In this document: piece after piece, positions 23,668-62,064 of the stretch | Position numbering within the stretch: the first letter of the stretch is position 1 | Layout: every line of letters starts with the position of its first letter | Source of the DNA: an uncultured Candidatus Saccharibacteria bacterium | Lineage (GTDB): Bacteria; Patescibacteriota; Minisyncoccia; Phycocordibacterales; CAIZLB01 | Length of the DNA: 64,000 bases | NCBI GenBank assembly: GCA_964620475.1 | Contig: CAZUJN010000001.1 | Location: 83,497-147,496 of the forward strand | Reading direction: 5' to 3' | Program-made: the position numbers and the translations under genes | The notes under the pieces: generated by a model | Told to the model about the DNA's origin: nothing | What the model saw: only the letters and a program-made list of their open reading frames with translations | Database searches by the model: none

Positions 23668-24255
23668 ATGACAATAATTTCTTTACTTATACTTATATTA
23701 TCGATAGTGGCTCATGAAGTTGCACATGGTATAGCCGCTTTATGGCAAGGAGATAGAACAGCAAAAGAGGCAGGCAGACTTACTTTGAATCCTATGGCAC
23801 ATATAGATCCTATAGGATCTGTGATATTACCACTAACTATGTTTTTTATAGGTTCTCCTTTTTTATTCGGTTGGGCAAAACCCGTACCAGTTAATCCTTA
23901 TTATTTTAGAAATGTAAGATACGGTGAGACTTTAGTTGCATTTGCTGGTCCATTAGTGAATCTTATATTCGTAGCTGTATTTACCTTGTTGATAAATTTT
24001 GGAAATTTCGGACAAAACTTTATTGATGTAGCTTCAATGATTGTTTTGATAAATCTAGTTTTAGCTTTCTTTAATTTGATGCCAATACCTCCACTTGATG
24101 GTTCTAAAATATTTTTTACACTTATACCACAAAGGTTTTATAAACTTAGACAATCATTAGAATCAAAATCGTTTATATTTTGGTTTATTGCAATAATAAT
24201 TATTTGGCAATTTTTCTATCCTTTAGTTTGGTGGTTGTATGGCGTGTTGGTGTAG
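23668..24255 (+). CDS. site-2 protease family (peptidase M50) membrane metalloprotease
   Basis: 195 aa. HEVAHG (HExxH) in TM1 and a second motif LNLVLAFFNLMPIPPLDG. Confidence 0.7.
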   Translation: MTIISLLILILSIVAHEVAHGIAALWQGDRTAKEAGRLTLNPMAHIDPIGSVILPLTMFFIGSPFLFGWAKPVPVNPYYFRNVRYGETLVAFAGPLVNLIFVAVFTLLINFGNFGQNFIDVASMIVLINLVLAFFNLMPIPPLDGSKIFFTLIPQRFYKLRQSLESKSFIFWFIAIIIIWQFFYPLVWWLYGVLV

Positions 24256-26175
24256 CAACATACCGACTTCACCCTCAAATTCCTTTCTGTATTGTTTCCA
24301 GCCAATAAAATTTCCTATTCTTGTTTCAGAGTCTAAGGCCTTAGCAGCATGTTCAAAAGGACTCCAGTGTCCAGATGATGATAGTTTTGTATACAGTTTA
24401 AGATCATTGTCTATGTTTGATGTTTTACCGTCAAAGGTTGAATAACTAACCCTGGCACATCTAGCGACGCTTATCTTTTTCTTTATATCTAAGTTTAAAC
24501 TTTCTTCCTCTTTTAATATAAAAGGTAAATGCCATTCATTGGTTTTTAATATTGTGGGTTTAATTGATTTTAATAATGAATCTATTTTTCGCGCCACCAG
24601 CCTAGTCTCTGGTTGGGCATCTTCTTTTGTTCTTAGGTTTAAGAAGTTATCCCATTCTGTTGATGTTATTATTATGTCTATCATTAACCACGGCTCTAAT
24701 ATTCTATTTAATATCTCTTTGTGTAAATTAATTTTCTCTCCAAAGAAGTGAAAAATAATTGGAATATATCTAGACCACAACCATATCTTTTTTGATATAA
24801 GTAATCTTATGCCAATTAATTTTTCTCCAGATTGCATACCTGGTTTATTTTCACCGAAGTAAATTGGTAGATATGGATTTGATATAACAGATTGTCTTAT
24901 TTTTTTTGCGGGTATTGCACGACTCGACGCCGAATTTCTTGATAAAAGTCTGTGGCTTATTATATGACCCCATACGAATTTCGGTATAGTTATTTTAAAG
25001 GTAGATATTCTTTTTCCTGTTTGCTCTGATTGAGAGTATTTTAGTATCTCAACCTTAATCTGTTCTTTATTTTTTTGAATTTTAGATTTGAGGTCTATAT
25101 CTATAAATTTATTTTCTGTATCAAAGGATAATATAGATGCTGATAAAACTGATTTATACAATACTGAGATAGTATTTTCTATTTCTTGAGGGGTAGATTC
25201 AAAAGCATTACCTCTAAAAGTAATAGGAAAACCGTTATTTATAAGTATTATATTATCTTTTTGTATATCTGTATGTGGTCCTATATTTATTTGATTATTT
25301 CTAAAATACAAAGAATCGAATTCTCTGTCAGATGAAGACATGCTTATTAGAAATAGTTTATCAATTATATTTTTGTTTATATAGTCAAGCTGATTTTTAC
25401 TTAGTATGTGTTTTCCAACACAACCGACCACAAGATTGATTCTATTTCTGATAATCACATCTACAATATTTTCTCTTTCATTATTTTTAATATCATACCC
25501 AACACAAAAATATTTTTTATCTAATTCTTTTTTTATTGATGAGCCTATAGGGCCAAGTCCTGATATTAATATTCTTGGTTTTATATTGTATTGATTTATA
25601 GTCTCATTGATTCTTTTTGTGCCTATTTTAGCTATGATTGGACTTTCTTTTTTTAATTTAGTGTTTGATCTCGCTACATTAAATATAGGAAATAATAATT
25701 TTTCATCTTCTAATTTTCTAAAACCAGAAGATGTTTGCTCAACACCAACTGTTATCATGTTGCTATTATTAGTCTTAAAATATTCTAAAGCAGTTTTTAT
25801 TAATTCACCGCCATCATCTAATAATATTAGCCTTGAATTGGGTCCAAGCAATTGCTTTATTCTACAGAATTCTTTATCGCAGTTTTCTTTGTGTTGTATA
25901 TCGAAATATTTATTTTGGTTAAATTCATGTTCTATGATATCAAAACCTTTGGTTTTTAAATCATTCAATACTATTTTATTTGTAGAATAAATTTTACCAA
26001 ATATGTGTATATTTTCTTTTGGTATACCTGATTTATTAATCATATCAAACATGAAAGCCTGGGGTGACAATATATGCTGACAGGCCAATATATGAACATT
26101 TGTAAAATCACCCTCAATTTTTTTGAAGATTTTATGAATCTTTTGTATTTTTGGATAATTATATTGATTGTTCAT
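24223..26175 (-). CDS. two-domain protein: N-terminal Rossmann-like (GLGPIGS) domain fused to a ThyX-like (flavin-dependent thymidylate synthase fold) domain with permuted motif order
   Basis: 650 aa. C-terminal half: TFKITIPKFVWGHIISHRLLSRNSASSRAI aligns with ThyX ...[21 protein letters not shown] (RHRx7S motif). EWDNFLNLRTKEDAQ aligns with ThyX SLMNFLNLRADSHAQ. ISVARCARVSY...SSGHWSPFEH aligns with the ThyX N-terminal AVRAARVSF...HGHETPFEH segment but lies at the C-terminus. Confidence 0.6.
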   Translation of the reverse strand: MNNQYNYPKIQKIHKIFKKIEGDFTNVHILACQHILSPQAFMFDMINKSGIPKENIHIFGKIYSTNKIVLNDLKTKGFDIIEHEFNQNKYFDIQHKENCDKEFCRIKQLLGPNSRLILLDDGGELIKTALEYFKTNNSNMITVGVEQTSSGFRKLEDEKLLFPIFNVARSNTKLKKESPIIAKIGTKRINETINQYNIKPRILISGLGPIGSSIKKELDKKYFCVGYDIKNNERENIVDVIIRNRINLVVGCVGKHILSKNQLDYINKNIIDKLFLISMSSSDREFDSLYFRNNQINIGPHTDIQKDNIILINNGFPITFRGNAFESTPQEIENTISVLYKSVLSASILSFDTENKFIDIDLKSKIQKNKEQIKVEILKYSQSEQTGKRISTFKITIPKFVWGHIISHRLLSRNSASSRAIPAKKIRQSVISNPYLPIYFGENKPGMQSGEKLIGIRLLISKKIWLWSRYIPIIFHFFGEKINLHKEILNRILEPWLMIDIIITSTEWDNFLNLRTKEDAQPETRLVARKIDSLLKSIKPTILKTNEWHLPFILKEEESLNLDIKKKISVARCARVSYSTFDGKTSNIDNDLKLYTKLSSSGHWSPFEHAAKALDSETRIGNFIGWKQYRKEFEGEVGMLLHQHAIQPPN

Positions 26176-26286
26176 ATAATAGGTGAGTCATATTGACTTG
26201 ACACTATTATAACTTTATGTCACTATAATATATACAGTTCGGCGAATTGCGAATATTTATATAATATAATACAATTTAGATAAATT

Positions 26287-27081
26287 ATGACAAACAACAC
26301 TTTAAATATAGATCAAATATGCCAGGTTTTAGATATTAAACCTGTTACGAAACGCATATTATTATCATTGATAGAGAAAGGTAATATGACCGTAGCTGAT
26401 ATATCATCCCATCTTAAAATACCCAAATCTACCATATATGACTCATTACAAGAGCTTATGGATAAAAGCATTGTCATAGAATATATGGATGGTAGGGCAA
26501 AGTCTTTTGGTATATCTAATCTGTCTCATTTAGAAGAGATATATAAAAAACAGATAAATAAACTTGATAATGCTCATAAATCACTGATTTCATATATACA
26601 AGAAAATTTAAATAAAAGTGACAATACAGGAGTGTCTCGTCCAAAGATTAAATTTTATTATGGCGTAGATGGTATGAAGCAGGCTTTTCGCGATACGCCC
26701 TGGGTCGAAGAACATAAAGAGACATATCTTATGTGGCCTATGGTTGAAATGGTTCAATTGTTCGGAGAAGATTTTTTGATACATCATGGAACTCCTAGAT
26801 TGCACTATAAAATAAACATGTATGTGGTTCAAAAGGATAGCGATAGAAATAATGTACCAGAGTCTTTTAAATGGAAAAAATATGATGAAAATGAGAGTTT
26901 AACTCATATAAAATATGCTCCTAAAAATATGGATTGGTCTATAAGTTATTGGATATACAGGGACCAAGTATTGTTTGCTGGATCAGGAGAGGAGAAATAT
27001 GCTTTTGTGGTTTATAGTAGAGAGTTTGCGCAACTAATGAAGCTTATGTGGCAACAGATGTATAGTGTGGCAGAGGAATAA
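26287..27081 (+). CDS. TrmB-family winged-helix transcriptional regulator
   Basis: 264 aa. N-terminal HTH (ILLSLIEKGNMTVADISSHLKIPKSTIYDSLQEL). Divergent from the ThyX-like gene. Confidence 0.5.
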   Translation: MTNNTLNIDQICQVLDIKPVTKRILLSLIEKGNMTVADISSHLKIPKSTIYDSLQELMDKSIVIEYMDGRAKSFGISNLSHLEEIYKKQINKLDNAHKSLISYIQENLNKSDNTGVSRPKIKFYYGVDGMKQAFRDTPWVEEHKETYLMWPMVEMVQLFGEDFLIHHGTPRLHYKINMYVVQKDSDRNNVPESFKWKKYDENESLTHIKYAPKNMDWSISYWIYRDQVLFAGSGEEKYAFVVYSREFAQLMKLMWQQMYSVAEE

Positions 27082-27159: not shown

Positions 27160-27915
27160 ATGTCATACGCTCAAGCTAAAGTCACGATTTACTTTGTCAA
27201 AGCCACCGCTTTCATGCATATCTTGTTCCACAAGGTTTCTGATGAGCTTCGTTTCGGACATCTCGTTGGGAGTTTTTTCGTGTATCCGATTAGATCAATT
27301 CCTCTGGCCTATCTTGCTCAGGTCACACCCGAGAAGACAGGGGGCGTTTCCGCTAAGTTATGTGCCGGTGATACAGGAAAAAGTGTTCATATTTATCCAG
27401 GTGATCAGTACATTGCTCTCATATCGGAACCGGCTCAGGATTCGGTTGCTCCTCAGATTGTATCTATGATGCCACGTTATGATTATGTGAGTATCATGGA
27501 ATCTATGAAGCCGATGCATATCGAATTCTCTCCTGACACGGTTTTTGAACTTGATATTCCTGCATGGTCCAGGAAAGTGACAGGTACCATGTTGATGATT
27601 ATCGACAAACTTATCGGACATGTAGGATCCGAAGTTCGAAGTGTCATCAAAAACCCTGATAACAAATGGTGGACTAAGCTTGAGGGTGAAGAGGAATACA
27701 CTCAGGTGTGGCCAATTATTCCGGAAATCACCCAAGACTACATAGCGTCCGCCATGGAACATCCGGTCAAACCATCTATCCCTAAGCCTTCTGAGAAGAA
27801 GGTCATGAAGGGTGCCAGGCCTAAACCGCCCAAAAAACTCACTACAACCGAGAAGGTTCCGGTGAAAACGGCAAAAAAGGTGGCAAAAAAGGCTGCCACC
27901 AAAAGAAACGGTTGA
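27160..27915 (+). CDS. hypothetical protein on a GC-rich (~48%) patch, with a Lys/Pro/Ala-rich histone-H1-like C-terminal tail
   Basis: 251 aa. Tail PKPSEKKVMKGARPKPPKKLTTTEKVPVKTAKKVAKKAATKRNG. The whole 27100-27975 segment is well above background GC, and the start codon is uncertain. Confidence 0.35.
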   Translation: MSYAQAKVTIYFVKATAFMHILFHKVSDELRFGHLVGSFFVYPIRSIPLAYLAQVTPEKTGGVSAKLCAGDTGKSVHIYPGDQYIALISEPAQDSVAPQIVSMMPRYDYVSIMESMKPMHIEFSPDTVFELDIPAWSRKVTGTMLMIIDKLIGHVGSEVRSVIKNPDNKWWTKLEGEEEYTQVWPIIPEITQDYIASAMEHPVKPSIPKPSEKKVMKGARPKPPKKLTTTEKVPVKTAKKVAKKAATKRNG

Positions 27916-33453: not shown

Positions 33454-34584
33454 TTATTTTATACCACTACCTATAGCCTCTTTTATGTTTTTGAATCCTT
33501 TTTCTTTTAATAATTGTGCTAGTTCTTGATTGATTTGAGATATTGCTTGAGGTCCTTCGAAGATCATACCTGTTATCATTTGTACGAGGGAGGCACCGTT
33601 TATTATTTTTTCATAGGCATCTTTTCCTGAAGATATTCCTCCAACTCCTATAAGGAGGTATTTATTATTAGTTTTTTTGTAAATATTAGCTAAAAGTTTA
33701 TTTGATAAATCTTCTACAGCCTTACCACTGATACCACCTTTTTCAGTTATATTTTTTTCCTCGTCATCTATTTTTGGATTATTTCTATTTTTGGTTAAAT
33801 TACTGCAGATGATTCCATGTATTCTGTGTTTATCCAATATATCTAATATGGTATTAGTTTCTTCTTCATTTATATCAGGGGATAATTTTATGAAAATTTT
33901 CTTGTCAGTATCTATTTTATCTATATTTTCCAATAGTTTTTCTAAGTTCTCCGGTTTTATAAAAGGTTGACCGCCTAGAGCATTAGGACATGATATATTG
34001 ATGGTTATATAGTCACCATATTCTTTCATTATGTTAAATGCTTTTATATAATCGTTTATAGCATTGTCTATTTCTAAGTTTTTATAACAATTTGTCATTG
34101 CTATATTTATACCTAAGGGTATTTTTGAGATAGATGATTTTATTGTATGAGATATTCTTTCAGCCCCTTTGTTTTTAAGACCATAATATACTATAAGACT
34201 TTTTGATTTTGGCATACGCCATAATCGGGGTTTTGGGTTACCATCACAATATTCACCAGTTATTGATCCTACCTCTATAAATCCAAAACCCACAGCCGGT
34301 AATATGTTTATAAGTTCTGCATTTTTGTCAAAACCCGCTGATAAACCTATGGGGTTTTCATATTCTTTTTCAAATATATTTTGATTTAATATAGGGTTTT
34401 TGTAATAGAAAAAAGCTTTAGTTATAAGTCTAAATAAGGAATATTTACCTAAAAATGCACCAACTTTTGTCATCTGATCATGTATATCTTCAGGATCCAT
34501 AAGGAAAAATATGGGTTTAAGGAGATATTTATAAAGAATGGATATTATAAGATTTCTTATTTTTATAAAAAGCTCATATATCAT
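33454..34584 (-). CDS. pyrD: dihydroorotate dehydrogenase (class 2, quinone-dependent type)
   Basis: 376 aa. NPIGLSAGFDKNAE, GFGFIEVGSIT, an N-terminal membrane-association extension and a C-terminal LIGVGGISSG. Confidence 0.8.
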   Translation of the reverse strand: MIYELFIKIRNLIISILYKYLLKPIFFLMDPEDIHDQMTKVGAFLGKYSLFRLITKAFFYYKNPILNQNIFEKEYENPIGLSAGFDKNAELINILPAVGFGFIEVGSITGEYCDGNPKPRLWRMPKSKSLIVYYGLKNKGAERISHTIKSSISKIPLGINIAMTNCYKNLEIDNAINDYIKAFNIMKEYGDYITINISCPNALGGQPFIKPENLEKLLENIDKIDTDKKIFIKLSPDINEEETNTILDILDKHRIHGIICSNLTKNRNNPKIDDEEKNITEKGGISGKAVEDLSNKLLANIYKKTNNKYLLIGVGGISSGKDAYEKIINGASLVQMITGMIFEGPQAISQINQELAQLLKEKGFKNIKEAIGSGIK

Positions 34585-47270: not shown

Positions 47271-48107
47271 TTGTTCGTAAAAATTGACAAAATTAAATCA
47301 AAAATATACACTATCTACATGAATAACCAAGATCTAAAAACCAAAGTTGAGCGAGCAGGCTTAACTGATAAAGAATCGGCCACATATAGTGCACTTATTG
47401 AGCTGGGCGGAGCTTTTCCTTCCAAAATAGCCGAATATACAAAACTTAATCGAAGTACTGTATATAAGGTATTATTAGATCTTTCTGTAAAAGGGTTGGT
47501 TAGTGAGATAAAGAAGAAAAATAAGTTGTATTATCAGATTGAAAACCCTACTCGACTTGTAAGATATGCAAAAGATAAGGTAAAGATAGCAGAAGAACAG
47601 TTGGAGTACATGTCTAAACTGGTTCCTCAAATAGAAGGATTATATTCATTACTTTCAAATAAGCCAAAGATTTCATATTTTGAAAATATAGACGGCATCC
47701 TTTCTATATATGAGGATCAAATATCGGGAACCAAGAAATATGAAATGTTAGCATTTTCTAATACAACAGAAATAGAGAATGTTTTTCCGAAAGATTTTTT
47801 CACCAGATATAGAAGAGCAAAAGAGAAAATAGGTATTACAACAAGGGGTCTTATTCCTGATACTGAAAGGGATGAATCATTTGTAAATAGAATGTATGAC
47901 GGATATAAAAAAGAGGTTATTCCTCAGGTAAAATATGTTCCAGCAAAAGATTTTCCATTTAAAGGTGAGATTACTATTTATGGAGATAAAAAAGTTTCTA
48001 TTGTAAATCTAAATAAAGAATATTTTACTGGTCTAATTATTGAAGACCAAACAATTCATAACATGATGAGAATGATATTTGAATTGTCTTGGAAAGGGGT
48101 TAAGTAG
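47271..48107 (+). CDS. TrmB-family winged-helix transcriptional regulator (paralogue-like of 26287..27081)
   Basis: 278 aa. N-terminal HTH ESATYSALIELGGAFPSKIAEYTKLNRSTVYKVLLDL. Confidence 0.5.
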   Translation: MFVKIDKIKSKIYTIYMNNQDLKTKVERAGLTDKESATYSALIELGGAFPSKIAEYTKLNRSTVYKVLLDLSVKGLVSEIKKKNKLYYQIENPTRLVRYAKDKVKIAEEQLEYMSKLVPQIEGLYSLLSNKPKISYFENIDGILSIYEDQISGTKKYEMLAFSNTTEIENVFPKDFFTRYRRAKEKIGITTRGLIPDTERDESFVNRMYDGYKKEVIPQVKYVPAKDFPFKGEITIYGDKKVSIVNLNKEYFTGLIIEDQTIHNMMRMIFELSWKGVK

Positions 48108-48118
48108 GGAAATAGATT

Positions 48119-48235
48119 CGGTCCTTACAGGATCAGTACACCTTTTCTCGTTTTATCGAATTCTACGAATTCTCAAAACATAGAAAAGCTTTTCGAATCT
48201 CCCACGGAAGCAAAGCGGTTTGCTTCCTCTTCTCC
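48119..48235 (+). repeat. hairpin-containing repeat, copy B (family A/B/C), followed by a terminator
   Basis: cggtccttacaggatcagtacacc...gaattctacgaattc...aagcttttcgaatctc-ccacggaagcaaagcggtttgcttcc-tcttctcc. Confidence 0.5.
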
Positions 48236-48240
48236 TAATT

Positions 48241-48271
48241 AAAAACAATCACCTGGCGGTGATTGTTTTTC
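48241..48271 (+). terminator. rho-independent terminator
   Basis: caatcacc-tggc-ggtgattg followed by ttttt. Confidence 0.55.
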
Positions 48272-48446
48272 CTAGCGGGCCATGTGAGTTAAGTACCCAC
48301 TGGTACAAGCAGTATAAGGCTTTTTGAGGGGTTTTAGAAGCACCTCCCTGAGGTAAGTGAGTTGGGTATCTAAATGCCAACAAATGCCAATTTTAGAGAG
48401 AATCGGGGTTATTAGAAAAAAGGATAAAAAATGGTAAAATGAGGCC

Positions 48447-49628
48447 ATGATTGAGGATTTAAACAAACACCTAACAGATCAAGAATTCTTCACCTATGCG
48501 AAGTTTTTTGACATGGTTATAAACAAAAAGAACCTCGCTGATGAAGACCAAAGAGAAATTGGTGTATATCAGTTTTCTATTGGCGAAGATGAGTCATATA
48601 GACGATTTCGTAGACTTTTCAATTTCATCAAATACCAAGACTTGCCAGTCAAAATCTCTGAATCAAGATACAACAAACTGGAAGAAATGATTGGTTCGTA
48701 CGCAAAAGGAAAAGACGCGAAAGGTGCAGGAATGCCGACAAAAGAAGATCTAGATACTATTTGCGAAAAGATAAATAACGGTAAGCCTATAAAATTTTCA
48801 GAGACAGGAATGCTGTCATGGGCATGGTTTGAGGTGTATGACTCCACTCATTTTTTGCCACATCAATACGAGATTTCTAATGAAGTAAAATCGAATGTTA
48901 AAAAAGAATTTGATACATATCTAGAGAATCTCATAAACGGCAAGCTCTCTATCGCTAAGGATAACTACTACAAGTTCAACATCCTAAAAGAAGCGTTCAT
49001 CCAAATGATTGAGCGAAAGGGTGTTTTGAAATTATTTGGCAAAAACTTTGTCATCAAAGAAGAATTAAACAATGAAGGAAACCTAAAGAGTGACCCTAAC
49101 TTTTGCATTGTGCAAACGGTATATGCCTTACAACACCTAGGATACCTGACGGTGAACAATATCTGGAGAGATGACGAGTACAAAGAACAATACAGTAGTT
49201 CGAGCAATATCCGATATTTCATATCAATCAATGTGACAATTGAGGATAGTTTCATTTCTGAAATAAACGACAGATACAAGAAAGCGAATCCAAAAAACGT
49301 GATCGAAGGATTCGACAAACCGAAAGGAATCTTAAAATTCGCAGGTGAGGAAATAATCCTTTCACTCAAAGGTAAAGAAACGGATGCATCCCTCCTTATG
49401 AATACCTTGTACAAAAAAGAAGATACGGAATGGATCTATAACGACGAGATTTTTGAGGATTGGAAGTTTAACCAAGCTGACATCCTGAAAAGTCCTAAAA
49501 ACAAGATATATTTCGCTGCCAAAAAGATAAATGAAAAGGTAGCGATGAAGACCAAAATCGAGGATTTTATTGAATTTACCACTGAAAAAGCAAGGATAAA
49601 TCCTCGCTACAACAAAGTTGACGAATAA
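48447..49628 (+). CDS. hypothetical protein (island cargo)
   Basis: 393 aa, GC about 40%, no motif recognised. Confidence 0.4.
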   Translation: MIEDLNKHLTDQEFFTYAKFFDMVINKKNLADEDQREIGVYQFSIGEDESYRRFRRLFNFIKYQDLPVKISESRYNKLEEMIGSYAKGKDAKGAGMPTKEDLDTICEKINNGKPIKFSETGMLSWAWFEVYDSTHFLPHQYEISNEVKSNVKKEFDTYLENLINGKLSIAKDNYYKFNILKEAFIQMIERKGVLKLFGKNFVIKEELNNEGNLKSDPNFCIVQTVYALQHLGYLTVNNIWRDDEYKEQYSSSSNIRYFISINVTIEDSFISEINDRYKKANPKNVIEGFDKPKGILKFAGEEIILSLKGKETDASLLMNTLYKKEDTEWIYNDEIFEDWKFNQADILKSPKNKIYFAAKKINEKVAMKTKIEDFIEFTTEKARINPRYNKVDE

Positions 49629-49719
49629 TATATAAATCGCAATAAATTTTTATAAATAGCCATCATATATCCTGAAGTCATCCTTCGGGATTTATTAATT
49701 AGCTAAATATAAAAGTTAT

Positions 49720-51015
49720 ATGCAAAAGCAAAAACTCATATGGTCAGTTACAACCCGCAAAGTGAGTGATCTGACAAAAAACGGATACAATCCGAGAAAG
49801 ATAAGCGAGAGCGAAAAGAGAGACTTGGAAAAGTCTATTAAGGAATTCGGGACGGTCGTTCCTGTAATCCTTAATATTGGTTTGAGAGCCAATGTCATTA
49901 TCGGCGGTGAGCAAAGAGTAAAGATATATGCTGATCTCGGTATGGAAGAGATCGAGTGTATGGTACCCTCTCGGGAACTGACACCTAAAGAAGAAAAAGA
50001 GCTTAACCTCCGTTTGAACAAAAACACAGGGTCATGGGATGAAAACCTTCTCAAGGAATTCGATATGGACATGCTCCTTGGTGTAGGTTTTGGCGATGAA
50101 GAATTGCAAAGCCTGTTTGATGATGTAGATATGGTCGAGGATGACTTTGATATTGAAAAAGCTGTCAAAGAAACCATAACTGCTAAAGTGAAGACTGGAG
50201 AAATCTGGGAACTCGGAAAGCATAGGTTGCTTGTTGGGGATTCTACTGATGTCACATCCGTACAAAAACTTATGGATGGAAAACTTGCAGACATCGTGTA
50301 CTGCGATCCGCCATACAACATTGGACTCGACTATTCAAAAGGTGTCGGCAACAAAGAAAAATATCAAGGGTCATATTCCGCAAAGGATGATTCGAAAAAG
50401 GATACTGACTATCTCGATTTCATAGATAAAAGTATTGATGTGGCAAAGACCGTAGCCAAGAAGGATTCCCACTTCTTCTACTGGTGCGACTCTTCGTATA
50501 TTTGGATCACACAGAATCTATACCAAAAGCACGGTATAGATAGTAAACGTGTCTGCATGTGGATCAAGAATAATCAGAATCCCACTCACAAGATTGCGTT
50601 CAATAAAGTATATGAACCATGCGTATACGGAACTATCGGCAAGCCATATCTCAATTCAGCAATGAACAATGTTAATGAGATTCTCAATCAGGAAGTGACC
50701 ACCGGCAATCAGGTACATGATGAGATTCTAGACATGATAGATATTTGGATTGAGAAAAGAGACAACGCTCAAACATATCAACATCCAACTCAAAAGCCTG
50801 TAACGCTCAATGAAAAACCACTCAAAAGATGCAGTGCTCCGCTTCATATTGTGTATAGCGGATTTGCGGGTAGCGGTAGTGATTTGATTGCTTGCGAAGA
50901 ATTAAATCGTGTTTGGTATGGAGTCGAAAAGGATTTGATTTTCGCAACCATCGTTATAGACCGATGGGAAAAGTTTACTGGCCTTAAAGCAAAGAAAATA
51001 TATGAAAATAACTAA
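49720..51015 (+). CDS. ParB/Srx-like nuclease domain fused to an N6-adenine/N4-cytosine DNA methyltransferase (DPPY class)
   Basis: 431 aa. N-terminal NPRKISE...IIGGEQRV (ParB-like). Methyltransferase motif IV VYCDPPYNIG and motif I GFAGSGSDLIACEELNR. Confidence 0.85.
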   Translation: MQKQKLIWSVTTRKVSDLTKNGYNPRKISESEKRDLEKSIKEFGTVVPVILNIGLRANVIIGGEQRVKIYADLGMEEIECMVPSRELTPKEEKELNLRLNKNTGSWDENLLKEFDMDMLLGVGFGDEELQSLFDDVDMVEDDFDIEKAVKETITAKVKTGEIWELGKHRLLVGDSTDVTSVQKLMDGKLADIVYCDPPYNIGLDYSKGVGNKEKYQGSYSAKDDSKKDTDYLDFIDKSIDVAKTVAKKDSHFFYWCDSSYIWITQNLYQKHGIDSKRVCMWIKNNQNPTHKIAFNKVYEPCVYGTIGKPYLNSAMNNVNEILNQEVTTGNQVHDEILDMIDIWIEKRDNAQTYQHPTQKPVTLNEKPLKRCSAPLHIVYSGFAGSGSDLIACEELNRVWYGVEKDLIFATIVIDRWEKFTGLKAKKIYENN

Positions 51016-51751
51016 AGGAGATATTTTCAAGATCGGCAATCATATTATCGGTTGTGGTGATTCTACCGACAGAGAATTTGTAGCTAAAGTAATCGGGAAG
51101 AACAAGATACGAGCCATCATTTCTGACCCACCTTATGGAGTTGCATATGTTGAAAACAAGAAAGGCTTTGCGAAACTTGGTGTTAAGGACGAGAAAATAA
51201 TTGTCGGCGATCATTTGCAGAGCGAATCTGAATATGAAGATTTCACCAGAAAGTATCTTGGTGCCGTTATTCCATATCTCGATGACTACAATGCATGCTA
51301 CATATTTAACGCCGATCCGATGTTTCCATCTCTCCGTAAAGGCATGAAAGATGCGGGTTTCTATTACAGCCAGATGATTATTTGGATTAAGAATCAACCT
51401 GTCATGAGTAGAAAAGACTACCTTTCGCAATATGAACTAATTGCATATGGATGGTTTGGCAAGCACAAAATGGAAAGATCTAAATCAAAGAATGTTATTT
51501 ATCACCCACGACCAAACAGATCAAGACTTCACCCTACACAAAAGCCGATAGGGCTACTTAGAAAGATAATTCCAGACGCAACATGCGTCGGTGACTTTAT
51601 CTATGATCCGTTTCTCGGAAGTGGATCAACTGCTATTGCATCGGAACATTTAGGTCGAAAATGTATCGGTATAGAAATAGATGAAGTGTATGTTTCCGTC
51701 GTTCTACAAAGACTTGAAAAGCTAACTGGTCAAAAACCAATAAAGATATAA
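51002..51751 (+). CDS. N6-adenine/N4-cytosine DNA methyltransferase (DPPY class)
   Basis: 249 aa. ISDPPYGVAY and DPFLGSGSTAIASEHLGRKCIGIEID. Confidence 0.85.
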   Translation: MKITKGDIFKIGNHIIGCGDSTDREFVAKVIGKNKIRAIISDPPYGVAYVENKKGFAKLGVKDEKIIVGDHLQSESEYEDFTRKYLGAVIPYLDDYNACYIFNADPMFPSLRKGMKDAGFYYSQMIIWIKNQPVMSRKDYLSQYELIAYGWFGKHKMERSKSKNVIYHPRPNRSRLHPTQKPIGLLRKIIPDATCVGDFIYDPFLGSGSTAIASEHLGRKCIGIEIDEVYVSVVLQRLEKLTGQKPIKI

Positions 51752-51755
51752 CAGT

Positions 51756-52130
51756 ATGAACGAGGAAGACTTCATAAAAGATCCATACAAAAAGCAAACA
51801 TACGATACGTATGCTCTTTGGAAGTCTCTGCCCTCATTTCTCAAGGGACAGCCGAGAGTTGCTCTCGAAAAGTTTGGTATTAATGAAGAAATTGTATTTG
51901 AGTTGCTATCCATAAAAAATCAAACTGAGTTCTCAAAAATATACAAAACAGATGTCGGCACATTGACCGACTGGAACAAGAGACTTGAGAAAGATGGATT
52001 GACTAAAGACATCAACAGCTGGGCAAGAAAGCTTACTCCTAACGTCATATTTGCCCTGTATAAAAATATCACAAAGCATGGTCGAGCTCATGAGGTGAGA
52101 GCATGGTATGAATTAATTGAAAACAACTAA
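51756..52130 (+). CDS. hypothetical small protein with a possible HTH
   Basis: 124 aa. TEFSKIYKTDVGTLTDWNKRL is HTH-like. Translationally coupled to the methyltransferase genes. Confidence 0.35.
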   Translation: MNEEDFIKDPYKKQTYDTYALWKSLPSFLKGQPRVALEKFGINEEIVFELLSIKNQTEFSKIYKTDVGTLTDWNKRLEKDGLTKDINSWARKLTPNVIFALYKNITKHGRAHEVRAWYELIENN

Positions 52131-52326
52131 TATGAAAAACATTGATCTAAAAGAAATAAATATCATTCTCTCTGACACATTGCAAAAAGTTGTGAATAGA
52201 GAGATCTCACATAAACAAGCGAACATGGTCGCTAAGCTTGCCTCTACACTTTCTAAAAACATTGTGAATACCGAACTCAAAGAGCGAGTTGAATTTTTGG
52301 AGCAAGCACTTAAAGGAAAGAAATAA
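52117..52326 (+). CDS. hypothetical small helical protein
   Basis: 69 aa. Overlaps its neighbours by 14 nt upstream and lies 3 nt from the next gene. Confidence 0.3.
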   Translation: MKTTNMKNIDLKEINIILSDTLQKVVNREISHKQANMVAKLASTLSKNIVNTELKERVEFLEQALKGKK

Positions 52327-52328
52327 TT

Positions 52329-53813
52329 ATGAAAAATCTAGCAAACCTATTAAGAAAAGCAGACATCACTCCAAGAGAAAGAATGATAACCTTGGTGCAA
52401 AATAGTGTTTATAAAGAAAAGGACGGCAAGAGTATTCTTTCCGAATCGGAGATATATTCTTTGACGGAGGGGTGGAAGCCGAAAACTTCTCAGGAAGTAA
52501 GGGAGTATAACAAGTACTTGGAACTGTCTAAACTAGAAGCTTCGATGAGATTAGATGCTCAAATGTTTGCGTGTAGATCCGAGAATCTGCTACTACGAAG
52601 TCATATACTGATTGAGGGAATAAAAAGTGATATAGGAAAAACTCATGATGCAATTTTAGATAAATATGTATCAAAAGAAGATGCCCTGAACTTTGTCATA
52701 CAAAATACTTATCTCGACTATTCAACGCTTGTTCACATACTCACTTTCAACAACCTACCGAAAGATATTCAGGATGATTTGATTATGTTAGATGAGTATG
52801 TAGCACATGATAAAAAGTATTTGGAAGATGAGGTCTTTCTTTATGAATTGTTCAAAGATTCAAGTACTCTAAATACAAAAGATAAAAATATCTTGATAGA
52901 CCGTATCTATTCGTGTATGTATCACGATGGTTTTAGAAAGATTAAAAATGGAACAGAAAAAGATGGTTTCTTGCCACTCCATTTCTTTGCTGAGTTACCA
53001 ATGGATGCTGTGCTGAAAAAATGGGCAGAATACAGCCAGACAGATATCGAGGGGAAAGATAATGGTTATATACTAGATAAATTTGAGGAGTACGCAAAAA
53101 GTAGAGGTAAAACCATGGAGATATTTGTAAAGGAAACACTATCGAAGTGGATAGATGAAGGTTTGTTTGTGTCGGAATATACCCCAGTATTTTTTAGTAA
53201 TAAACACAATACATGGAATGGTGATACTAAATTTATACACAAAGAGATTTTTACCAAATGGCACGAAGAATTACAGAAGACCAAAACATCGATAGACAAA
53301 ATGGGTGCTAATGGAGATTTGGTTGTGGAGCAATTTGATAAGGAAATTTTTGGAACCACAGAGAAGGTTCAGATAGTTACTGGGGAAAGTTTGTATAGAT
53401 GCAAATCTGATATTGACTTTGTGAATGAATACAAGGAGCAGGTGACTGTACTCCTACCTATCGCAGGGACGTGTTTGTTTATGAAGAAATATAATAAGCC
53501 GTTAGATAATCTTGAAACACTAAAATGTTTTTACGAATTATCTAAAACATTTTCGGATGTATTTGAAATTGATATGTCAGATAAATATGATGATTTTGTG
53601 AGTTCGTTTGAACAGGAGATCAAACTCATCAATCATTCAATATCCATTGCATTAGATAATGTGAGTGGTTTTATATATACAAAAATGAACAAAAAATACC
53701 CAATAGAGATCATCGAGAATAATTTTACTTTTGATATTGATACAGAATCAGAAAATAAAGCCGATGGTATTATTGAAAGTTATAAAGGAGCATTTCAGAA
53801 AATTGGGTTTTAA
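52329..53813 (+). CDS. hypothetical protein (494 aa), island cargo
   Basis: No Walker, nuclease or HTH motif recognised. Last gene of the plus-strand methyltransferase operon. Confidence 0.4.
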   Translation: MKNLANLLRKADITPRERMITLVQNSVYKEKDGKSILSESEIYSLTEGWKPKTSQEVREYNKYLELSKLEASMRLDAQMFACRSENLLLRSHILIEGIKSDIGKTHDAILDKYVSKEDALNFVIQNTYLDYSTLVHILTFNNLPKDIQDDLIMLDEYVAHDKKYLEDEVFLYELFKDSSTLNTKDKNILIDRIYSCMYHDGFRKIKNGTEKDGFLPLHFFAELPMDAVLKKWAEYSQTDIEGKDNGYILDKFEEYAKSRGKTMEIFVKETLSKWIDEGLFVSEYTPVFFSNKHNTWNGDTKFIHKEIFTKWHEELQKTKTSIDKMGANGDLVVEQFDKEIFGTTEKVQIVTGESLYRCKSDIDFVNEYKEQVTVLLPIAGTCLFMKKYNKPLDNLETLKCFYELSKTFSDVFEIDMSDKYDDFVSSFEQEIKLINHSISIALDNVSGFIYTKMNKKYPIEIIENNFTFDIDTESENKADGIIESYKGAFQKIGF

Positions 53814-57128: not shown

Positions 57129-57848
57129 TTATAATAACTTAATTCTATAATTTATCCAAATAAAACCCCGCTCGTTTCTCTCTTGTTTTGTTTCTATCTT
57201 GTATCCGTACTCGGTCATCATTTTTTCTAGAACTTCAAAATCATATCGGGGTTGAGAAGTTCCTGCACTCTGTAAATTTGCATGGGGTAAGGTAATAATA
57301 CCGTCATTATGTAAAAAATCTTTTGCATCATTAAGAAATCTTTTATGTACAGTGAAATTGTTATCATAGAGCGCCCGATCAATTAAGTCGTTTCCACCAT
57401 CAAAATTGACAAAGGGTAAATTTGCGATAATCAGATGGTATTTTTTATCAGATGGAAATTTTGAAAAAAGATCAGAATAGAAGGTTGATATTTTATTTTG
57501 TAAACCGTTTAATGAAACATTGTGTTCAGTGCATTTAATTGCTTCCATGTTAATGTCGGCAGAGTCAACGTGCTTTGCGCCTGCAAGAGAAGCAACTATT
57601 GACTGTACACCTGTACCACAACCTATATCTGCAACTTCTAAATCACTTAAATTTCCAAATGCTTCAAAAACAGATTTTGAACTGGGGGTATAATCGGGTG
57701 GAAAGACGCTGGGAAAAACATCGATAGGAACAATCTTGTCTCCAATATTCAAGCTTATTCTGTAAATTCCATCCTTACTTTTATTTTTCAAAAAAGAAAG
57801 AAATTCTTGAGTATGTTTTGGATTGATTTTTTCTATGTGTGTAATCAT
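57129..57848 (-). CDS. SAM-dependent methyltransferase, small-domain (RsmC/RlmG/PrmC-like) type
   Basis: 239 aa. VADIGCGTGVQSIVASLAG (motif I), HLIIANLPFV (NPPY-like motif IV), preceded by VFPPDYTPSS. Confidence 0.55.
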   Translation of the reverse strand: MITHIEKINPKHTQEFLSFLKNKSKDGIYRISLNIGDKIVPIDVFPSVFPPDYTPSSKSVFEAFGNLSDLEVADIGCGTGVQSIVASLAGAKHVDSADINMEAIKCTEHNVSLNGLQNKISTFYSDLFSKFPSDKKYHLIIANLPFVNFDGGNDLIDRALYDNNFTVHKRFLNDAKDFLHNDGIITLPHANLQSAGTSQPRYDFEVLEKMMTEYGYKIETKQERNERGFIWINYRIKLL

Positions 57849-57853
57849 ATTTT

Positions 57854-58174
57854 TTAATCCTCAATCCAAACCTGTGCTGGACGATGTGCATCAGAATGTT
57901 TTATGTCAATAAATATTTTTAGATATTTAGGTTTAATAGATTCTTTTACTTGCAGATAAATTTGATGGGCCAACTCTTCAGCAGTAATTTTATTTTTAGC
58001 AATTTCATTTACAGCTCGCTCAGCATCGACATATTCAAGAACTTTCTTCTTGGGATAGTACTCAACGATAACATCACCAGAAAACTCTTTATCCGTAACC
58101 GAACAAATTGCCTTAAACGGTAAAAATATCTTTGTGCCACTGATCTTGAAATTTAATGAGATTGTTTTAATCAT
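57854..58174 (-). CDS. T-fold protein, QueF-like
   Basis: 106 aa. LPFKAICSVTDKEFSGDVIVEYYPKKKVLE aligns with QueF [30 protein letters not shown] (Cys conserved). The QueF E(S/L)K(S/A)hK(L/Y)(F/Y/W) motif is not preserved. C-terminal LKIFIDIKHSDAHRPAQVWIE is a T-fold-type strand. Confidence 0.4.
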   Translation of the reverse strand: MIKTISLNFKISGTKIFLPFKAICSVTDKEFSGDVIVEYYPKKKVLEYVDAERAVNEIAKNKITAEELAHQIYLQVKESIKPKYLKIFIDIKHSDAHRPAQVWIED

Positions 58175-58175
58175 T

Positions 58176-59081
58176 TTATTGTAAGTTATGTTTGATAATA
58201 AAAATTCTAAAATTTGCAGGGATACTCCTTACTTTTGTCATATTGAGTTCATGTTTTTGTGCAAATTCGGACATTTTTTTGTATATAAAATCTCTATCCT
58301 CAGAACTTAAACCTGCACTGAACACATTATACGTTCCTTCTTTTATTGAATAAAGAAGGTCATTGAGTTGATATTTTCTTTTCCATGATAGTGCTTTATT
58401 TGAAATAATCTTGAACAAAGTAAATTTTTTATCTGCACAGATATATTCCACAGCTTTTGTAGCATCGCCTGCGGGATACTTTCTTTGAACAAAAGGCTTT
58501 TTGAGATTAACTCTTAAAGAAAAATAATATTCAAAAAGAAGCTCTAGGTCCTTATCTATAATTGGGCTATTAAAAATTTGTTCAATCCTATCTTCTATCT
58601 GACTATTTTCATCGCCAGTAATAATATAACCACCAGGCTTAGATAAAGATTTTATCTTATTCAAAGCTTTTTCTGGAGAATTAAAACAATGAAGAATTGC
58701 TTTGAAGTGCACAATACTATACTGTCCTTTAAATTTAAGAACGTCTCCCAAAATTATTCGGGTTTTATCTTTAACATATTTAGACACAGCCTCATACATT
58801 TTTTCACTATAATCTATTCCATAAATCTCAGCCTTTGAATTTAAATTCAAAAGGGGTATTAAAAACAAGCCAGACCCAAAGCCAACATCTAGAATGTTGT
58901 CACCGTCTCGTGTTAAACCAATGGCTTGAGATGCATATTCTTTCTGTATAGATTTTGGGAATAATCGCAAAATCTCGTACTGTTGTTGGTTTATTTTTTT
59001 GTAGGTATCCCGCGTAGACATAAAAGTACTGTACCATAAAATTATCCTTTTGTGTAGCCATTTAAATATTTTTTCTATCAA
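58176..59081 (-). CDS. class I SAM-dependent methyltransferase
   Basis: 301 aa. ILDVGFGSGLF (motif I) and GGYIITGDE. Confidence 0.55.
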   Translation of the reverse strand: MIEKIFKWLHKRIILWYSTFMSTRDTYKKINQQQYEILRLFPKSIQKEYASQAIGLTRDGDNILDVGFGSGLFLIPLLNLNSKAEIYGIDYSEKMYEAVSKYVKDKTRIILGDVLKFKGQYSIVHFKAILHCFNSPEKALNKIKSLSKPGGYIITGDENSQIEDRIEQIFNSPIIDKDLELLFEYYFSLRVNLKKPFVQRKYPAGDATKAVEYICADKKFTLFKIISNKALSWKRKYQLNDLLYSIKEGTYNVFSAGLSSEDRDFIYKKMSEFAQKHELNMTKVRSIPANFRIFIIKHNLQ

Positions 59082-59147: not shown

Positions 59148-60473
59148 ATGAAAACAACAGCACCAACAGGCTATGAAATGGCCCAAACAACACAATTAGT
59201 AGCAAGTTTGAAATACTGCCTTTATGCACGTAAATCGACAGAAAGCGAGGAACGGCAAGTCCTCTCTATAGACAGTCAGATTAAGGAGATGTTACAACTG
59301 GCAGAACGAGAGAATCTGGATATCGTGACAATGAAGCGAGAAAGTCACTCGGCAAAAGAAACTGGACAAAGACCAGTATTCAACGAGATAATCGATGAAT
59401 TAAGAGCTGACAAATACAACGCAATCCTCACATGGGCACCCGACCGTATCTCAAGAAACGCAGGAGACTTAGGAAAAATCGTTGACTTGATGGATGCGGG
59501 TAAACTACACCAAATCAGGACATTCGGACAGACATTTTCAAACAATCCGAATGAAAAATTTCTTCTAATGATTCTTGGATCACAAGCAAAGCTTGAGAAC
59601 GACAACCGAGGGATTAATGTAAAACGAGGACTGCGAACAAGAGTAGAGATGGGATTGTGGCCAGGAGTTGCACCTCTTGGATATTTGAATCAAAGGGATA
59701 TCGACAAGAAGTGTCAGCTCATAGTCGATCAATTGAGAGCACCACTGGTAAAAAAAATATTTGAAAAAGTGGCATATGAAAAATTAAGCGGAAGAAAGAT
59801 ATATAATTGGCTTCGATTTGAAGCCAATTTCTATACCAGAGGAAACAAACCTCTGACACTCGCAGGAGTATATAGGATCATAGAAAGCCACTTCTACTAT
59901 GGGATGTTTGAATATCCAAAAGACAGCGGTAACTGGTATACAGGAAAACATGAACCATTGATTACCAAAGAATTATTTGATCAGGCTCAAGCCCAAATGA
60001 AGCGTGACAACATACAACGAGAGAATAAAGAATTTGCATTCACTAAATTATTTACATGCGGATACTGTAGTAGTGGAATATCAGCAGAAGAAAAATGGAA
60101 GCAACTCAAGGATGGAACGCATGCAAAATATGTATACTACTCATGTGCGAGATCGAGAGACAGGAACTGTAAGAACAAATATATACGAGAGGAGGATTTA
60201 ATTATCGAGATGTTAAAAATACTGGACAAGGTAAATATAAACGAGCTAGGCATGAGGCAAAAGCTTGAGGACGAGATAGCAAGATTCAACATATTCCAAA
60301 GGTCGGTGCTCGGAAGTACTGACAAGGTTGGCAACAGAAAAGATACTGATATACGAAACTATGCGAAGTATATTCTCAAAGAGGGAGCGGTTACTGAAAA
60401 GCGAGAATTGCTAGCGAACTTGAGATCGAGAATAGCATATAAAGACAAAGAGCTGACATTAATCGAAGAATAG
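59148..60473 (+). CDS. large serine recombinase (resolvase N-domain, recombinase domain and zinc ribbon)
   Basis: 441 aa. YARKSTESEERQVLSIDSQ (Ser nucleophile), GLWPGVAPLGY, CGYCSSG...C. Confidence 0.8.
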   Translation: MKTTAPTGYEMAQTTQLVASLKYCLYARKSTESEERQVLSIDSQIKEMLQLAERENLDIVTMKRESHSAKETGQRPVFNEIIDELRADKYNAILTWAPDRISRNAGDLGKIVDLMDAGKLHQIRTFGQTFSNNPNEKFLLMILGSQAKLENDNRGINVKRGLRTRVEMGLWPGVAPLGYLNQRDIDKKCQLIVDQLRAPLVKKIFEKVAYEKLSGRKIYNWLRFEANFYTRGNKPLTLAGVYRIIESHFYYGMFEYPKDSGNWYTGKHEPLITKELFDQAQAQMKRDNIQRENKEFAFTKLFTCGYCSSGISAEEKWKQLKDGTHAKYVYYSCARSRDRNCKNKYIREEDLIIEMLKILDKVNINELGMRQKLEDEIARFNIFQRSVLGSTDKVGNRKDTDIRNYAKYILKEGAVTEKRELLANLRSRIAYKDKELTLIEE

Positions 60474-61974: not shown

Positions 61975-62064
61975 TGGCGGAGGAGGTGAGATTCGAACTC
62001 ACGGGACCCGTAAAGGCCCTCCTGTTTTCAAGACAGGTGCAATCGACCTCTCTGCCACTCCTCC
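61975..62064 (-). tRNA. tRNA-Ser (anticodon TGA) with encoded CCA
   Basis: 90 nt. Acceptor ggaggag/ctcctcc, anticodon arm cctgt-cTTGAaa-acagg, long variable arm, T arm gtgag-ttcgaat-ctcac. Confidence 0.85.

Follow-up and report, generated by a model that had tools for sequence, protein, structure and literature searches.

A Saccharibacteria gene joining an AHCY-like domain to a circularly permuted ThyX domain derives from a two-gene operon

We analyzed a 64,000-nucleotide stretch of DNA from an uncultured Candidatus Saccharibacteria bacterium (hereafter the window) and, within it, a gene at 24223..26175 on the (-) strand. This gene is an intact ATG-to-stop open reading frame (ORF) of 650 amino acids, delimited by the ORF call, by its occurrence on other contigs and by fusion orthologues, and its product consists of a domain related to S-adenosylhomocysteine hydrolase (AHCY), a short linker and a circularly permuted domain of the flavin-dependent thymidylate synthase ThyX. 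The fusion is real and old; it reflects the uncommon joining of the two genes of an operon and does not represent a new catalytic architecture. Both halves belong to known superfamilies, and the permuted family has already been annotated, seemingly without a structural description as far as we could find. The main new result is a recurrent tie of the AHCY-like family to ThyX, to the canonical thymidylate synthase ThyA and to methyltransferases. Our overall account, which we hold with moderate confidence, is that selection has maintained a genuine fusion of two operon genes known in some relatives among the Patescibacteria (the candidate phyla radiation, CPR), and that it joins a probable thymidylate synthase to a probable hydrolase of the AHCY type.

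The C-terminal domain (amino acids 365-650; 24226..25083, (-) strand) was assigned to ThyX using Pfam Thy1, PHROG 85, an AlphaFold2 (AF2) model, Foldseek and hhalign. Pfam Thy1 (PF02511) matched with E=1.3e-13 and 51.6 bits against a gathering cut-off of 24.8, placing amino acids 372-540 on profile positions 40-190. The AF2 model of this domain has a pLDDT of 91.7, and its top 50 Foldseek matches in the PDB were all ThyX or the ThyX-fold enzyme PolB, with a probability of 1.00 and about 152 aligned columns, a length that reflects a sequential aligner covering only the collinear core. The Thy1 search and the structural comparison with ThyX were the checks proposed in an initial annotation, made from the sequence alone, that had recognized a ThyX-like domain, and both came out in its favor. 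A motif check of the 650-residue protein likewise located every motif it had quoted at the place given: TFKITIPKFVWGHIISHR at amino acids 392-409, LLSRNSASSRA at 410-420, EWDNFLNLRTKEDAQ at 507-521, SVARCARVSY at 569-578, SSGHWSPFEH at 600-609 and, in the N-terminal half, GLGPIGS at 206-212.

The order of these blocks is permuted. Canonical ThyX proteins have the order HxxPFEH, RHR, NFLNLR, whereas the domain has an RHR-like block, then NFLNLR, then HWSPFEH. A segment matching Thermotoga maritima ThyX 57-213 (amino acids 386-557; 24505..25020, (-) strand; family profile against the PDB, hhalign and motif check) is followed by a segment matching ThyX 11-97 (amino acids 558-647; 24235..24504, (-) strand; TIGR02170, profile against the PDB and hhalign), which in ThyX itself precedes the C-terminal part. 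TIGR02170 puts amino acids 567-611 on its profile positions 15-59. A profile of the permuted family built from 48 sequences (A2) aligned to T. maritima ThyX in the PDB in a non-collinear manner, with positions 196-240 on 33-74, 20-48 on 76-104 and 131-171 on 175-215. Using hhalign, domain residues q194-283 aligned to T. maritima ThyX 11-97 (93.7%) and q22-193 to 57-213, and a doubled ThyX sequence gave a single collinear path (q2-286 to 30-322, probability 97%, E=1e-10). In the T. maritima sequence used for these hhalign tests, the blocks confirmed by the PDB alignments are the N-terminal, RHR and C-terminal ones; its middle part is unverified. Because the domain is collinear to the doubled ThyX only, we conclude that it is a true circular permutation, as the initial annotation had supposed. 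Two tandem ThyX repeats were ruled out, as the domain amounts to ~1.1 ThyX equivalents and contains each catalytic block once.

The permutation retains a footprint of its probable origin. ThyX residues 57-97 are present twice, an overlap of ~40 residues, with a functional N-terminal copy (SHR...SSR) and a vestigial C-terminal copy in which AAKAL...GWKQYR aligns on ThyX IVFTF...QWFRHR. This overlap points to a duplication intermediate and matches the prediction of a duplication-then-truncation route to permutation. The permuted family probably arose from canonical ThyX by tandem duplication and subsequent loss of both outer ends. We found no description of a ThyX permutation in the literature.

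Most catalytic positions of ThyX are preserved despite the rearrangement. The equivalents of T. maritima His53, Arg80, Ser88, Arg90, Arg147 and Arg174 are H603, R409, S417, R419, R491 and R515, all (near-)invariant in the 48 family members, and the equivalents of Glu58, His59, His79 and Asn169 are conserved in the permuted family too. By block, S417/S418/R419 correspond to Ser88/Gly89/Arg90, N490-R491 to Arg147 and NFLNLR (amino acids 510-515) to Arg174, while ARCARVSY and GHWSPFEH, the latter matching His53...His59, are found in the trailing segment. The replacement of RHR by SHR that had been reported is indeed present, at amino acids 407-409. The strict RHRx7S motif is therefore absent; in SHRLLSRNSAS the first Arg has changed, and the remaining motif residues (His, second Arg and Ser) and their spacing are retained. 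In the permuted family, Ala is invariant at the Tyr91 equivalent and the Glu86 equivalent varies.

The permutation and the T/S-H-R motif are traits of a large family, not of this protein or its lineage. A HMMER search with the 286-residue domain recovered 5179 clusters at 50% identity, 2303 of them with E<1e-30. Almost all of the recovered proteins stand alone, are ~260-300 residues long (typically ~275) and align along the whole query, and T/S-H-R instead of RHR is the family-wide consensus. By tblastn the domain occurs in 1033 phage records, 980 of which cover at least 80% of it; most are annotated as thymidylate synthase, and the hosts include Escherichia, Pseudomonas, Vibrio, Klebsiella and Caulobacter. 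PHROG 85 matched amino acids 365-637 with E=1.6e-60, a collinear similarity over the full length, and the best viral structural match reached a TMq of 0.86 over 269 columns. The proposal that the protein is an unusual ThyX variant of this lineage thus did not survive, the permutation and the loss of the Arg being common to thousands of stand-alone, mostly phage, proteins. A scan of genome contigs with the C-terminal domain returned 3 loci only. Four family members of ~600-730 residues (P0175, P0213, P0241 and P0269) carry LAGLIDADG homing-endonuclease domains, probably inteins inside the synthase; inteins are typical of essential replication enzymes, which we counted in favor of thymidylate synthesis.

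The ThyX half, judged from its sequence, would quite probably make deoxythymidine monophosphate (dTMP) by the ordinary ThyX mechanism, that is, the FAD-mediated reductive methylation of deoxyuridine monophosphate (dUMP) with 5,10-methylene-tetrahydrofolate and NAD(P)H. We favor this activity because the catalytic ThyX residues are kept, because lytic phages use the family beside dUMP-generating enzymes and because ThyA is interchangeable with it in the operon slot described below; that a canonical ThyA can take this slot argues that the product is plain dTMP. The initial annotation had also raised the idea of a novel pyrimidine C5-modifying enzyme, acting in hypermodified-nucleotide synthesis or salvage, in place of a thymidylate synthase; hydroxymethylation would be one such activity. 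The divergence from canonical ThyX (a score under the TIGR02170 cut-off, SHR for RHR, the replaced Tyr91 and Glu86 equivalents) would suit such an enzyme, as would the existence of a ThyX paralogue of altered specificity, the UMP/dUMP methylase PolB, among the structural matches. However, these deviations are family-wide, extending over ~5000 clusters and ~1000 phages of many hosts, and the residues contacting dUMP and flavin are kept. The phage gene context also runs against it, since in the N4-like Shigella virus Moo19 the permuted ThyX gene lies a few genes away from a dCTP deaminase gene, and at none of the loci examined is there a neighboring hypermodification gene of the glycosyl-, amino- or kinase type. 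With canonical ThyA in the same operon slot elsewhere, we consider a C5-modifying enzyme very unlikely.

The operon from which the fusion derives is visible in relatives. Many source contigs in the homologue lists of the two halves match in size, including contigs of 2.2-4.4 kb. In each of the three loci retrieved through the permuted ThyX (L012, L013 and L014), the AHCY-like gene lies directly upstream of the permuted ThyX gene with an 8-nt overlap. Of the 80 metagenome loci retrieved through the AHCY-like gene, nine have an adjacent ThyX gene. The AHCY-like gene comes first in L017-L019 and L022, and the ThyX gene comes first in L024-L026, L029 and L086. The window protein has at the position of this 8-nt stop/start overlap a Lys-rich inter-domain linker (about amino acids 352-372; 25060..25122, (-) strand), marked by low pLDDT at the end of the N-terminal model and the start of the C-terminal one. 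An independent fusion in the reverse order, P0004 (L004:1401-3728), consists of a permuted ThyX domain (50% identity), a ~90-residue linker, an AHCY-like domain (33% identity) and two C-terminal transmembrane helices; its neighbors on the contig are genes for a SET-domain protein and an AdoMet decarboxylase.

With separate genes and an 8-nt overlap in most relatives, a single indel could merge the pair, so that the 650-residue ORF might reflect a sequencing frameshift or a chimeric assembly of adjacent genes. We find this scarcely credible. Three further public contigs, from independent assemblies, encode an identical protein, three fusion orthologues (P0001-P0003) share 93, 60 and 58% identity with it and have conserved linkers, and the reverse-order fusion arose independently. 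The combination of the two domains had been called undescribed, and our literature search agrees with this, as it returned no description of a ThyX-AHCY fusion, of such an operon or of a link between ThyX and AHCY in CPR bacteria.

The N-terminal domain (amino acids 1-364; 25084..26175, (-) strand) comprises the nucleoside-binding and NAD Rossmann subdomains of the AHCY superfamily, as identified with NCBIfam, a profile search against the PDB, AF2 and Foldseek. The query alone gave weak AHCY matches, with NCBIfam AHCY on amino acids 7-175, and the Pfam AdoHcyase models (PF05221 and PF00670) had no match. A family profile of 37 sequences (A1), by contrast with the query alone, matched AHCY structures in the PDB with E about 1e-12 over profile positions 7-297. 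The AF2 model (pLDDT 90.7) had AHCY for all of its top 50 Foldseek matches, the best with E=1.6e-14, at a TMq of about 0.72 and 15-18% identity. Foldseek, together with the GLGPIG motif and Asp228, therefore identifies a two-domain AHCY fold with an NAD Rossmann domain, and the separate dinucleotide-binding, AHCY-like domain that had been predicted at the N-terminus is upheld. The family has no dedicated model in the libraries searched, and a few members match AdoHcyase_NAD or HcgC weakly or partially. We rejected an identity as an HcgC-type S-adenosylmethionine (SAM) methyltransferase (PF06690), for which there were only partial matches to the Rossmann half (model 11-152 of 248), the best at 34.6 bits in P0395 and none in the query itself, whereas all PDB searches gave AHCY. 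We found the AHCY-like family in CPR, DPANN, Simkaniaceae and Rickettsiales, and detected the domain neither in phage genomes nor in IMG/VR, an absence that rules out a phage origin of the AHCY-like/ThyX pair.

Part of the AHCY active site is recognizable in this domain. Profile alignment and conservation place the motif ACQHIL (amino acids 31-36; 26068..26085, (-) strand) on AHCY so that CQH corresponds to CLH and H34 to the catalytic His55 of the human enzyme; Q33 and H34 are near-invariant, in 84/87 and 85/87 family members, respectively. By the same evidence LLDDGGE (amino acids 118-124; 25804..25824, (-) strand) is the DDGGD motif of AHCY, with Asp131 kept. In the alignment, VEQTSSGF (amino acids 145-152; 25720..25743, (-) strand) corresponds to EETTTG, with Glu155 kept, Glu156 replaced by Gln in 86/87 members and the equivalents of Thr157-159 conserved as well. 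Further along, NVARSNTKLKKES (amino acids 166-178; 25642..25680, (-) strand) aligns with NVNDSVTKSKFDN of AHCY, so that K173 is the catalytic Lys186 and E177 stands for Asp190. The family consensus NVARS..K...E, set against NVNDSVTKSKFD of AHCY, likewise retains Asn181 and Lys186 and has Glu for Asp190. Alignment and conservation also identify the GLGPIGS dinucleotide-binding loop (25540..25560, (-) strand), and an invariant Asp228 (25489-25503) at the end of the strand that follows it suggests NAD, not NADP. The invariant, family-specific motif MSSSDREF (amino acids 279-286; 25318..25341, (-) strand; alignment and conservation) lies at the AHCY motif GH(F/A)D.E and replaces His301 with Ser.

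Alignments to AHCY stop near AHCY residue 340 (about profile position 297), and the family is ~375 residues long. Beyond that point the invariant motif NNGFPITF (amino acids 313-320; 25216..25239, (-) strand) is defined by conservation only; read by eye, NNGFP appears to lie at the place of N346...G-H353-P in AHCY, which would put Phe for His353. The adenine contacts of AHCY are not retained, Thr57 and Glu59 being Leu36 and Pro38 in the profile alignment, and of the catalytic set of the human enzyme His55, Asp131 and Lys186 are kept while Glu156, Asp190 and His301 are changed. About 35 putative active-site positions are (near-)invariant in 87 members whatever the neighboring gene, a pattern that speaks for a functional enzyme and for a single activity shared by the family. 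Among the invariant motifs, GKxYS, SSSDREF and NNGFP are specific to the family.

The AHCY-like half is probably an NAD-dependent hydrolase of the S-adenosylhomocysteine (SAH) type, in which a tightly bound NAD+ would transiently oxidize the 3'-OH of a nucleoside ligand. AHCY-type chemistry on such a ligand is suggested by the retention of the NAD site and of the Lys/Asp/His core that oxidizes the ribose 3'-OH. Our best guess for the ligand, and a tentative one, is SAH or a close relative, because the methyltransferase fusions and neighbors of the family would fit and because the invariant Arg and acidic residues of SSSDREF could hold the amino-acid moiety. We have not filed this half as an SAH hydrolase (TIGR00936), because the curated models failed and three or four catalytic or recognition residues are gone, the fourth being His353 as read by eye.

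To examine the wider gene context, we typed the tightly coupled neighbors of stand-alone AHCY-like genes with Pfam, counting metagenome contigs that include some near-duplicates. A canonical ThyA gene (PF00303) lies directly downstream of the AHCY-like gene with a 4-nt overlap at two loci, L059:5947-7910 and L091:5980-8078, the latter from an archaeon of the Pacearchaeota (DPANN); identity between the two ThyA proteins is only 31%. At both loci a double winged-helix AsnC/TrmB-type regulator is encoded divergently, upstream of the AHCY-like gene; divergent TrmB/AsnC-type regulators are also found in the window and at L006, L007, L014 and L098. A thymidylate synthase gene is the immediate neighbor at 11/80 loci, in addition to the fusions, compared with ~0.3% expected by a rough estimate assuming genomes of ~700 genes. 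In a neighbor-joining tree of 87 AHCY-like sequences, members linked to a thymidylate synthase fall into at least seven separate clades.

Methyltransferases form the other recurrent association. Class-I SAM methyltransferases of three kinds lie beside the AHCY-like gene at no fewer than ten loci, a methyltransferase-like gene follows it in the Rickettsiales bacterium Ac37b (L096:7001-8953), and the 634-residue protein P0461 (L098:6841-8745) has a weak class-I methyltransferase-like N-terminal region fused to the AHCY-like domain, with a TrmB regulator encoded divergently. A short-chain dehydrogenase/reductase gene follows the AHCY-like gene twice, at L083 and on the 132-kb plasmid of Simkania negevensis (L097:6657-9610), where an EamA-family transporter gene comes next. 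All-versus-all clustering of the ORFs of 86 loci yielded no third conserved neighbor, antisense shadow ORFs aside, and an early impression of a linkage to TrhO (L001 and L003) did not hold in wider loci. Because the family is repeatedly co-transcribed with or fused to methyl-transferring enzymes, often opposite a TrmB-type regulator, we interpret the fusion as a hard-wired 'one-carbon / methylation housekeeping' module, whose halves may be coupled physically or metabolically. Like the fusion and the operon, this association of the family with ThyA, ThyX and methyltransferase genes seems to have gone undescribed in the literature searched.

We also considered that the AHCY-like domain acts on a pyrimidine (deoxy)nucleoside or nucleotide through 3'-keto chemistry, for example supplying dUMP or deoxyuridine or processing dTMP or thymidine, so that the pair would be a two-step thymidine-nucleotide pathway of host-dependent microbes. 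Its attraction is that the family is tied to two unrelated thymidylate synthases, ThyA and the permuted ThyX, by fusions in both orders and by translational coupling, and that these ties are scattered across the whole AHCY-like tree. It would also accommodate the active site, in which the adenine readers (Thr57, Glu59) and the 2'-OH contacts (Glu156 to Gln, Asp190 to Glu) are changed, and His353 by eye too, while the 3'-OH and NAD machinery is kept, and it suits a family limited to organisms that have to build dTTP from imported ribonucleotides. However, the same invariant active site is present in members fused to or beside SAM methyltransferases with no thymidylate synthase nearby, and the AHCY-like gene is never found in phages that have permuted ThyX, which shows that the synthase functions on its own. 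To our knowledge, no AHCY-type reaction acts on pyrimidine nucleotides. On balance we regard a pyrimidine substrate as rather unlikely. A broader conjecture, to which we give about a one-in-four chance, is that thymidylate synthesis in symbionts with reduced genomes (CPR, DPANN, Simkaniaceae and Rickettsiales) has an unrecognized and nearly obligatory partner in the AHCY-like family. The family would then either apply a new AHCY-type, NAD-mediated 3'-keto chemistry to a pyrimidine deoxynucleoside or nucleotide, or couple the SAM/SAH cycle directly to dTMP synthesis. If true, this would account for the coupling to two unrelated thymidylate synthases and make the fusion a key to a missing nucleotide or one-carbon step.

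A third role for the AHCY-like domain would be that of a redox or cofactor helper, either an NADH-dependent flavin reductase or an analogue of dihydrofolate or folate reductase replacing dihydrofolate reductase (DHFR) or the supply of NADPH. A Rossmann NAD domain next to a thymidylate synthase recalls bifunctional DHFR-TS, and FolA was not detected at any locus: tblastn searches of all loci with Escherichia coli FolA and T. maritima ThyX returned no DHFR and, for ThyX, the permuted genes but no canonical one. Yet ThyX requires neither DHFR nor a separate flavin reductase, and the NAD of AHCY-type enzymes is buried and does not exchange. The motifs that are conserved belong to the ribose site of AHCY and do not resemble a pterin site, and a helper would leave the methyltransferase fusions and neighbors unexplained, all of which makes this role highly improbable.

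Several observations weigh against our overall account of a dTMP synthase joined to an SAH-type hydrolase. On the ThyX side, the query scores 49.3 bits against a cut-off of 87.9 with the NCBIfam thyX equivalog (TIGR02170), in three non-collinear stretches, and the first Arg of RHR, Glu86 and Tyr91 of the T. maritima enzyme are replaced. On the AHCY side, the NCBIfam ahcY models give 19.8-21.3 bits against cut-offs of 275-498, and the loss of adenine and 2'-OH contacts counts against SAH as the ligand; with the adenine contacts, Glu156, His301 and, by eye, His353 replaced, the ligand may not be SAH. Nor would SAH hydrolysis obviously account for the tight link to thymidylate synthases, enzymes for which SAH is neither a product nor a substrate. 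In the gene context, methyltransferase adjacency is just ~2-fold over a rough expectation, and at about 70/80 loci the AHCY-like gene adjoins neither a thymidylate synthase nor a methyltransferase gene. Finally, our literature search found no biochemical characterization of any member of either family.

ThyX serves as a target for antimicrobials and as a classic example of how one enzyme can be replaced by a non-homologous one. That a very large, mostly phage-borne branch of it is circularly permuted and retains a duplication footprint, of which we found no mention in the literature, matters for annotation (the family falls short of the thyX equivalog model), for structure-based inhibitor work and for studies of protein evolution. 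The ties of the AHCY-like family, through fusions, operons and non-orthologous displacement, offer a handle on the one-carbon and nucleotide metabolism of organisms that cannot be grown alone. If the N-terminal domain is an SAH hydrolase, a gap in metabolic reconstructions would be closed; if it is not, it would represent new enzymology.

The immediate surroundings of the fusion gene match the initial description of a divergent pairing with a TrmB-like regulator. Domain search and locus comparison identify a winged-helix regulator of the TrmB family, 264 residues long and divergently transcribed, at 26287..27081 on the (+) strand, and the 111-bp intergenic region between the two genes (26176..26286, unstranded) was covered by a promoter scan. 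Promoter-like hexamers are present on both of its strands, and in the locus scan counts of promoters and terminators were not above those of shuffled controls. The 3' end of the fusion gene overlaps that of a convergent peptidase-M50 gene (23668-24255) by 33 nt (24223-24255), and the last ~20 residues of the fusion protein have low pLDDT and differ in the 93%-identical orthologue P0001. On the syntenic contig of the 60% orthologue (L006:4673-5854), the fusion gene is separated from the M50 peptidase gene by genes for a serine hydroxymethyltransferase (SHMT) and a phage-like ORF6N/pRha protein; both are absent at the matching place in the window. SHMT is a supplier of methylene-tetrahydrofolate. 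A motif scan of the 64-kb window for thyA, canonical thyX, SHMT, DHFR, dCMP deaminase, dUTPase, AHCY, Pfs and MetK gave no match and is silent on the rest of the genome.

Elsewhere, the window has a G+C content of 27-39% and includes genes for ComEC, ribosomal proteins and type IV pilin-like proteins. This gene content, along with homologues from Paceibacterota, Parcubacteria and Patescibacteria, puts the window in the CPR. Rfam and ARAGORN identified three tRNAs as its only RNA genes, all far from the fusion locus. Next to the TrmB gene, a 251-residue ORF with no Pfam match (27160-27915) has a Lys/Ala-rich C-terminal tail resembling histone H1. Other frames there contain overlapping ORFs and the G+C content is locally up (0.365), and the called gene is conserved in L007. 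Two intervals, 47271-53813 and 59148-60473, may form a mobile or foreign segment. Encoded there are a pair of DNA N6/N4 methyltransferases, of which one carries a fused ParB N-terminal domain (49720-51751), several ORFs without a Pfam match, and a large serine recombinase (59148-60473) beside a tRNA-Ser (61975-62064). A class-2-like dihydroorotate dehydrogenase (33454-34584; PF01180, E=2e-69) represents a step of de novo pyrimidine synthesis that is probably uncommon in CPR genomes. Finally, a small cluster at 57129-59081 on the (-) strand, in which a 106-residue protein of the QueF / GTP-cyclohydrolase-I fold (57854-58174) lies between two uncharacterized ORFs, may be related to 7-deazaguanine.

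Among known systems, canonical ThyX (T. maritima TM0449, PDB 1O26/1KQ4; PF02511) shares with the C-terminal domain its fold, its sequence blocks and the equivalents of its catalytic residues, and the domain passes the Pfam Thy1 threshold. It differs in having the order 57-213 then 11-97, the vestigial 57-97 duplicate at its C-terminus, an extra N-terminal strand, S/T-H-R, Ala at Tyr91, no conserved Glu86 and a score under the TIGR02170 cut-off. The phage family PHROG 85 (Shigella virus Moo19 gp44, Myxococcus phage Mx1, Achromobacter phiAxp-3 and N4-like Schitoviridae) is collinear with the domain over 286 residues at 36-42% identity and has the same permuted order and T/S-H-R. The phage proteins, however, stand alone, without an AHCY-like partner, whereas members of the CPR clade are fused to the AHCY-like gene or share an operon with it and are marked by a distinct signature, PKF.WGHI.SHR. 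PolB, the UMP/dUMP C5-methylase of polyoxin biosynthesis (PDB 4P5A), is a ThyX-fold paralogue that is collinear with ThyX; our protein is permuted, and we saw no antibiotic-cluster context.

For the N-terminal half, the counterparts are AHCY/SahH (PDB 6GBN and 1LI4), the archaeal inosine-specific enzyme (7R3A) and the catalytically inactive AHCYL1/2 (3MTG and 3GVP), with which it shares the two-domain fold (TM about 0.72) and the GxGxxG motif plus an acidic residue. The AHCY-like family is only 15-18% identical to these proteins, has ~375 residues compared with 410-495, and may lack the C-terminal tail, which in AHCY covers the NAD of the neighboring subunit. As an arrangement, the fusion can be set beside the bifunctional DHFR-TS of protozoa and plants, in which a thymidylate synthase is fused to an NAD(P)-binding one-carbon partner and whose genes are separate and adjacent in other organisms. 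The folds differ on both sides, folate reduction by the AHCY-like domain is unsupported, and the AHCY-like fusion occurs in both domain orders.

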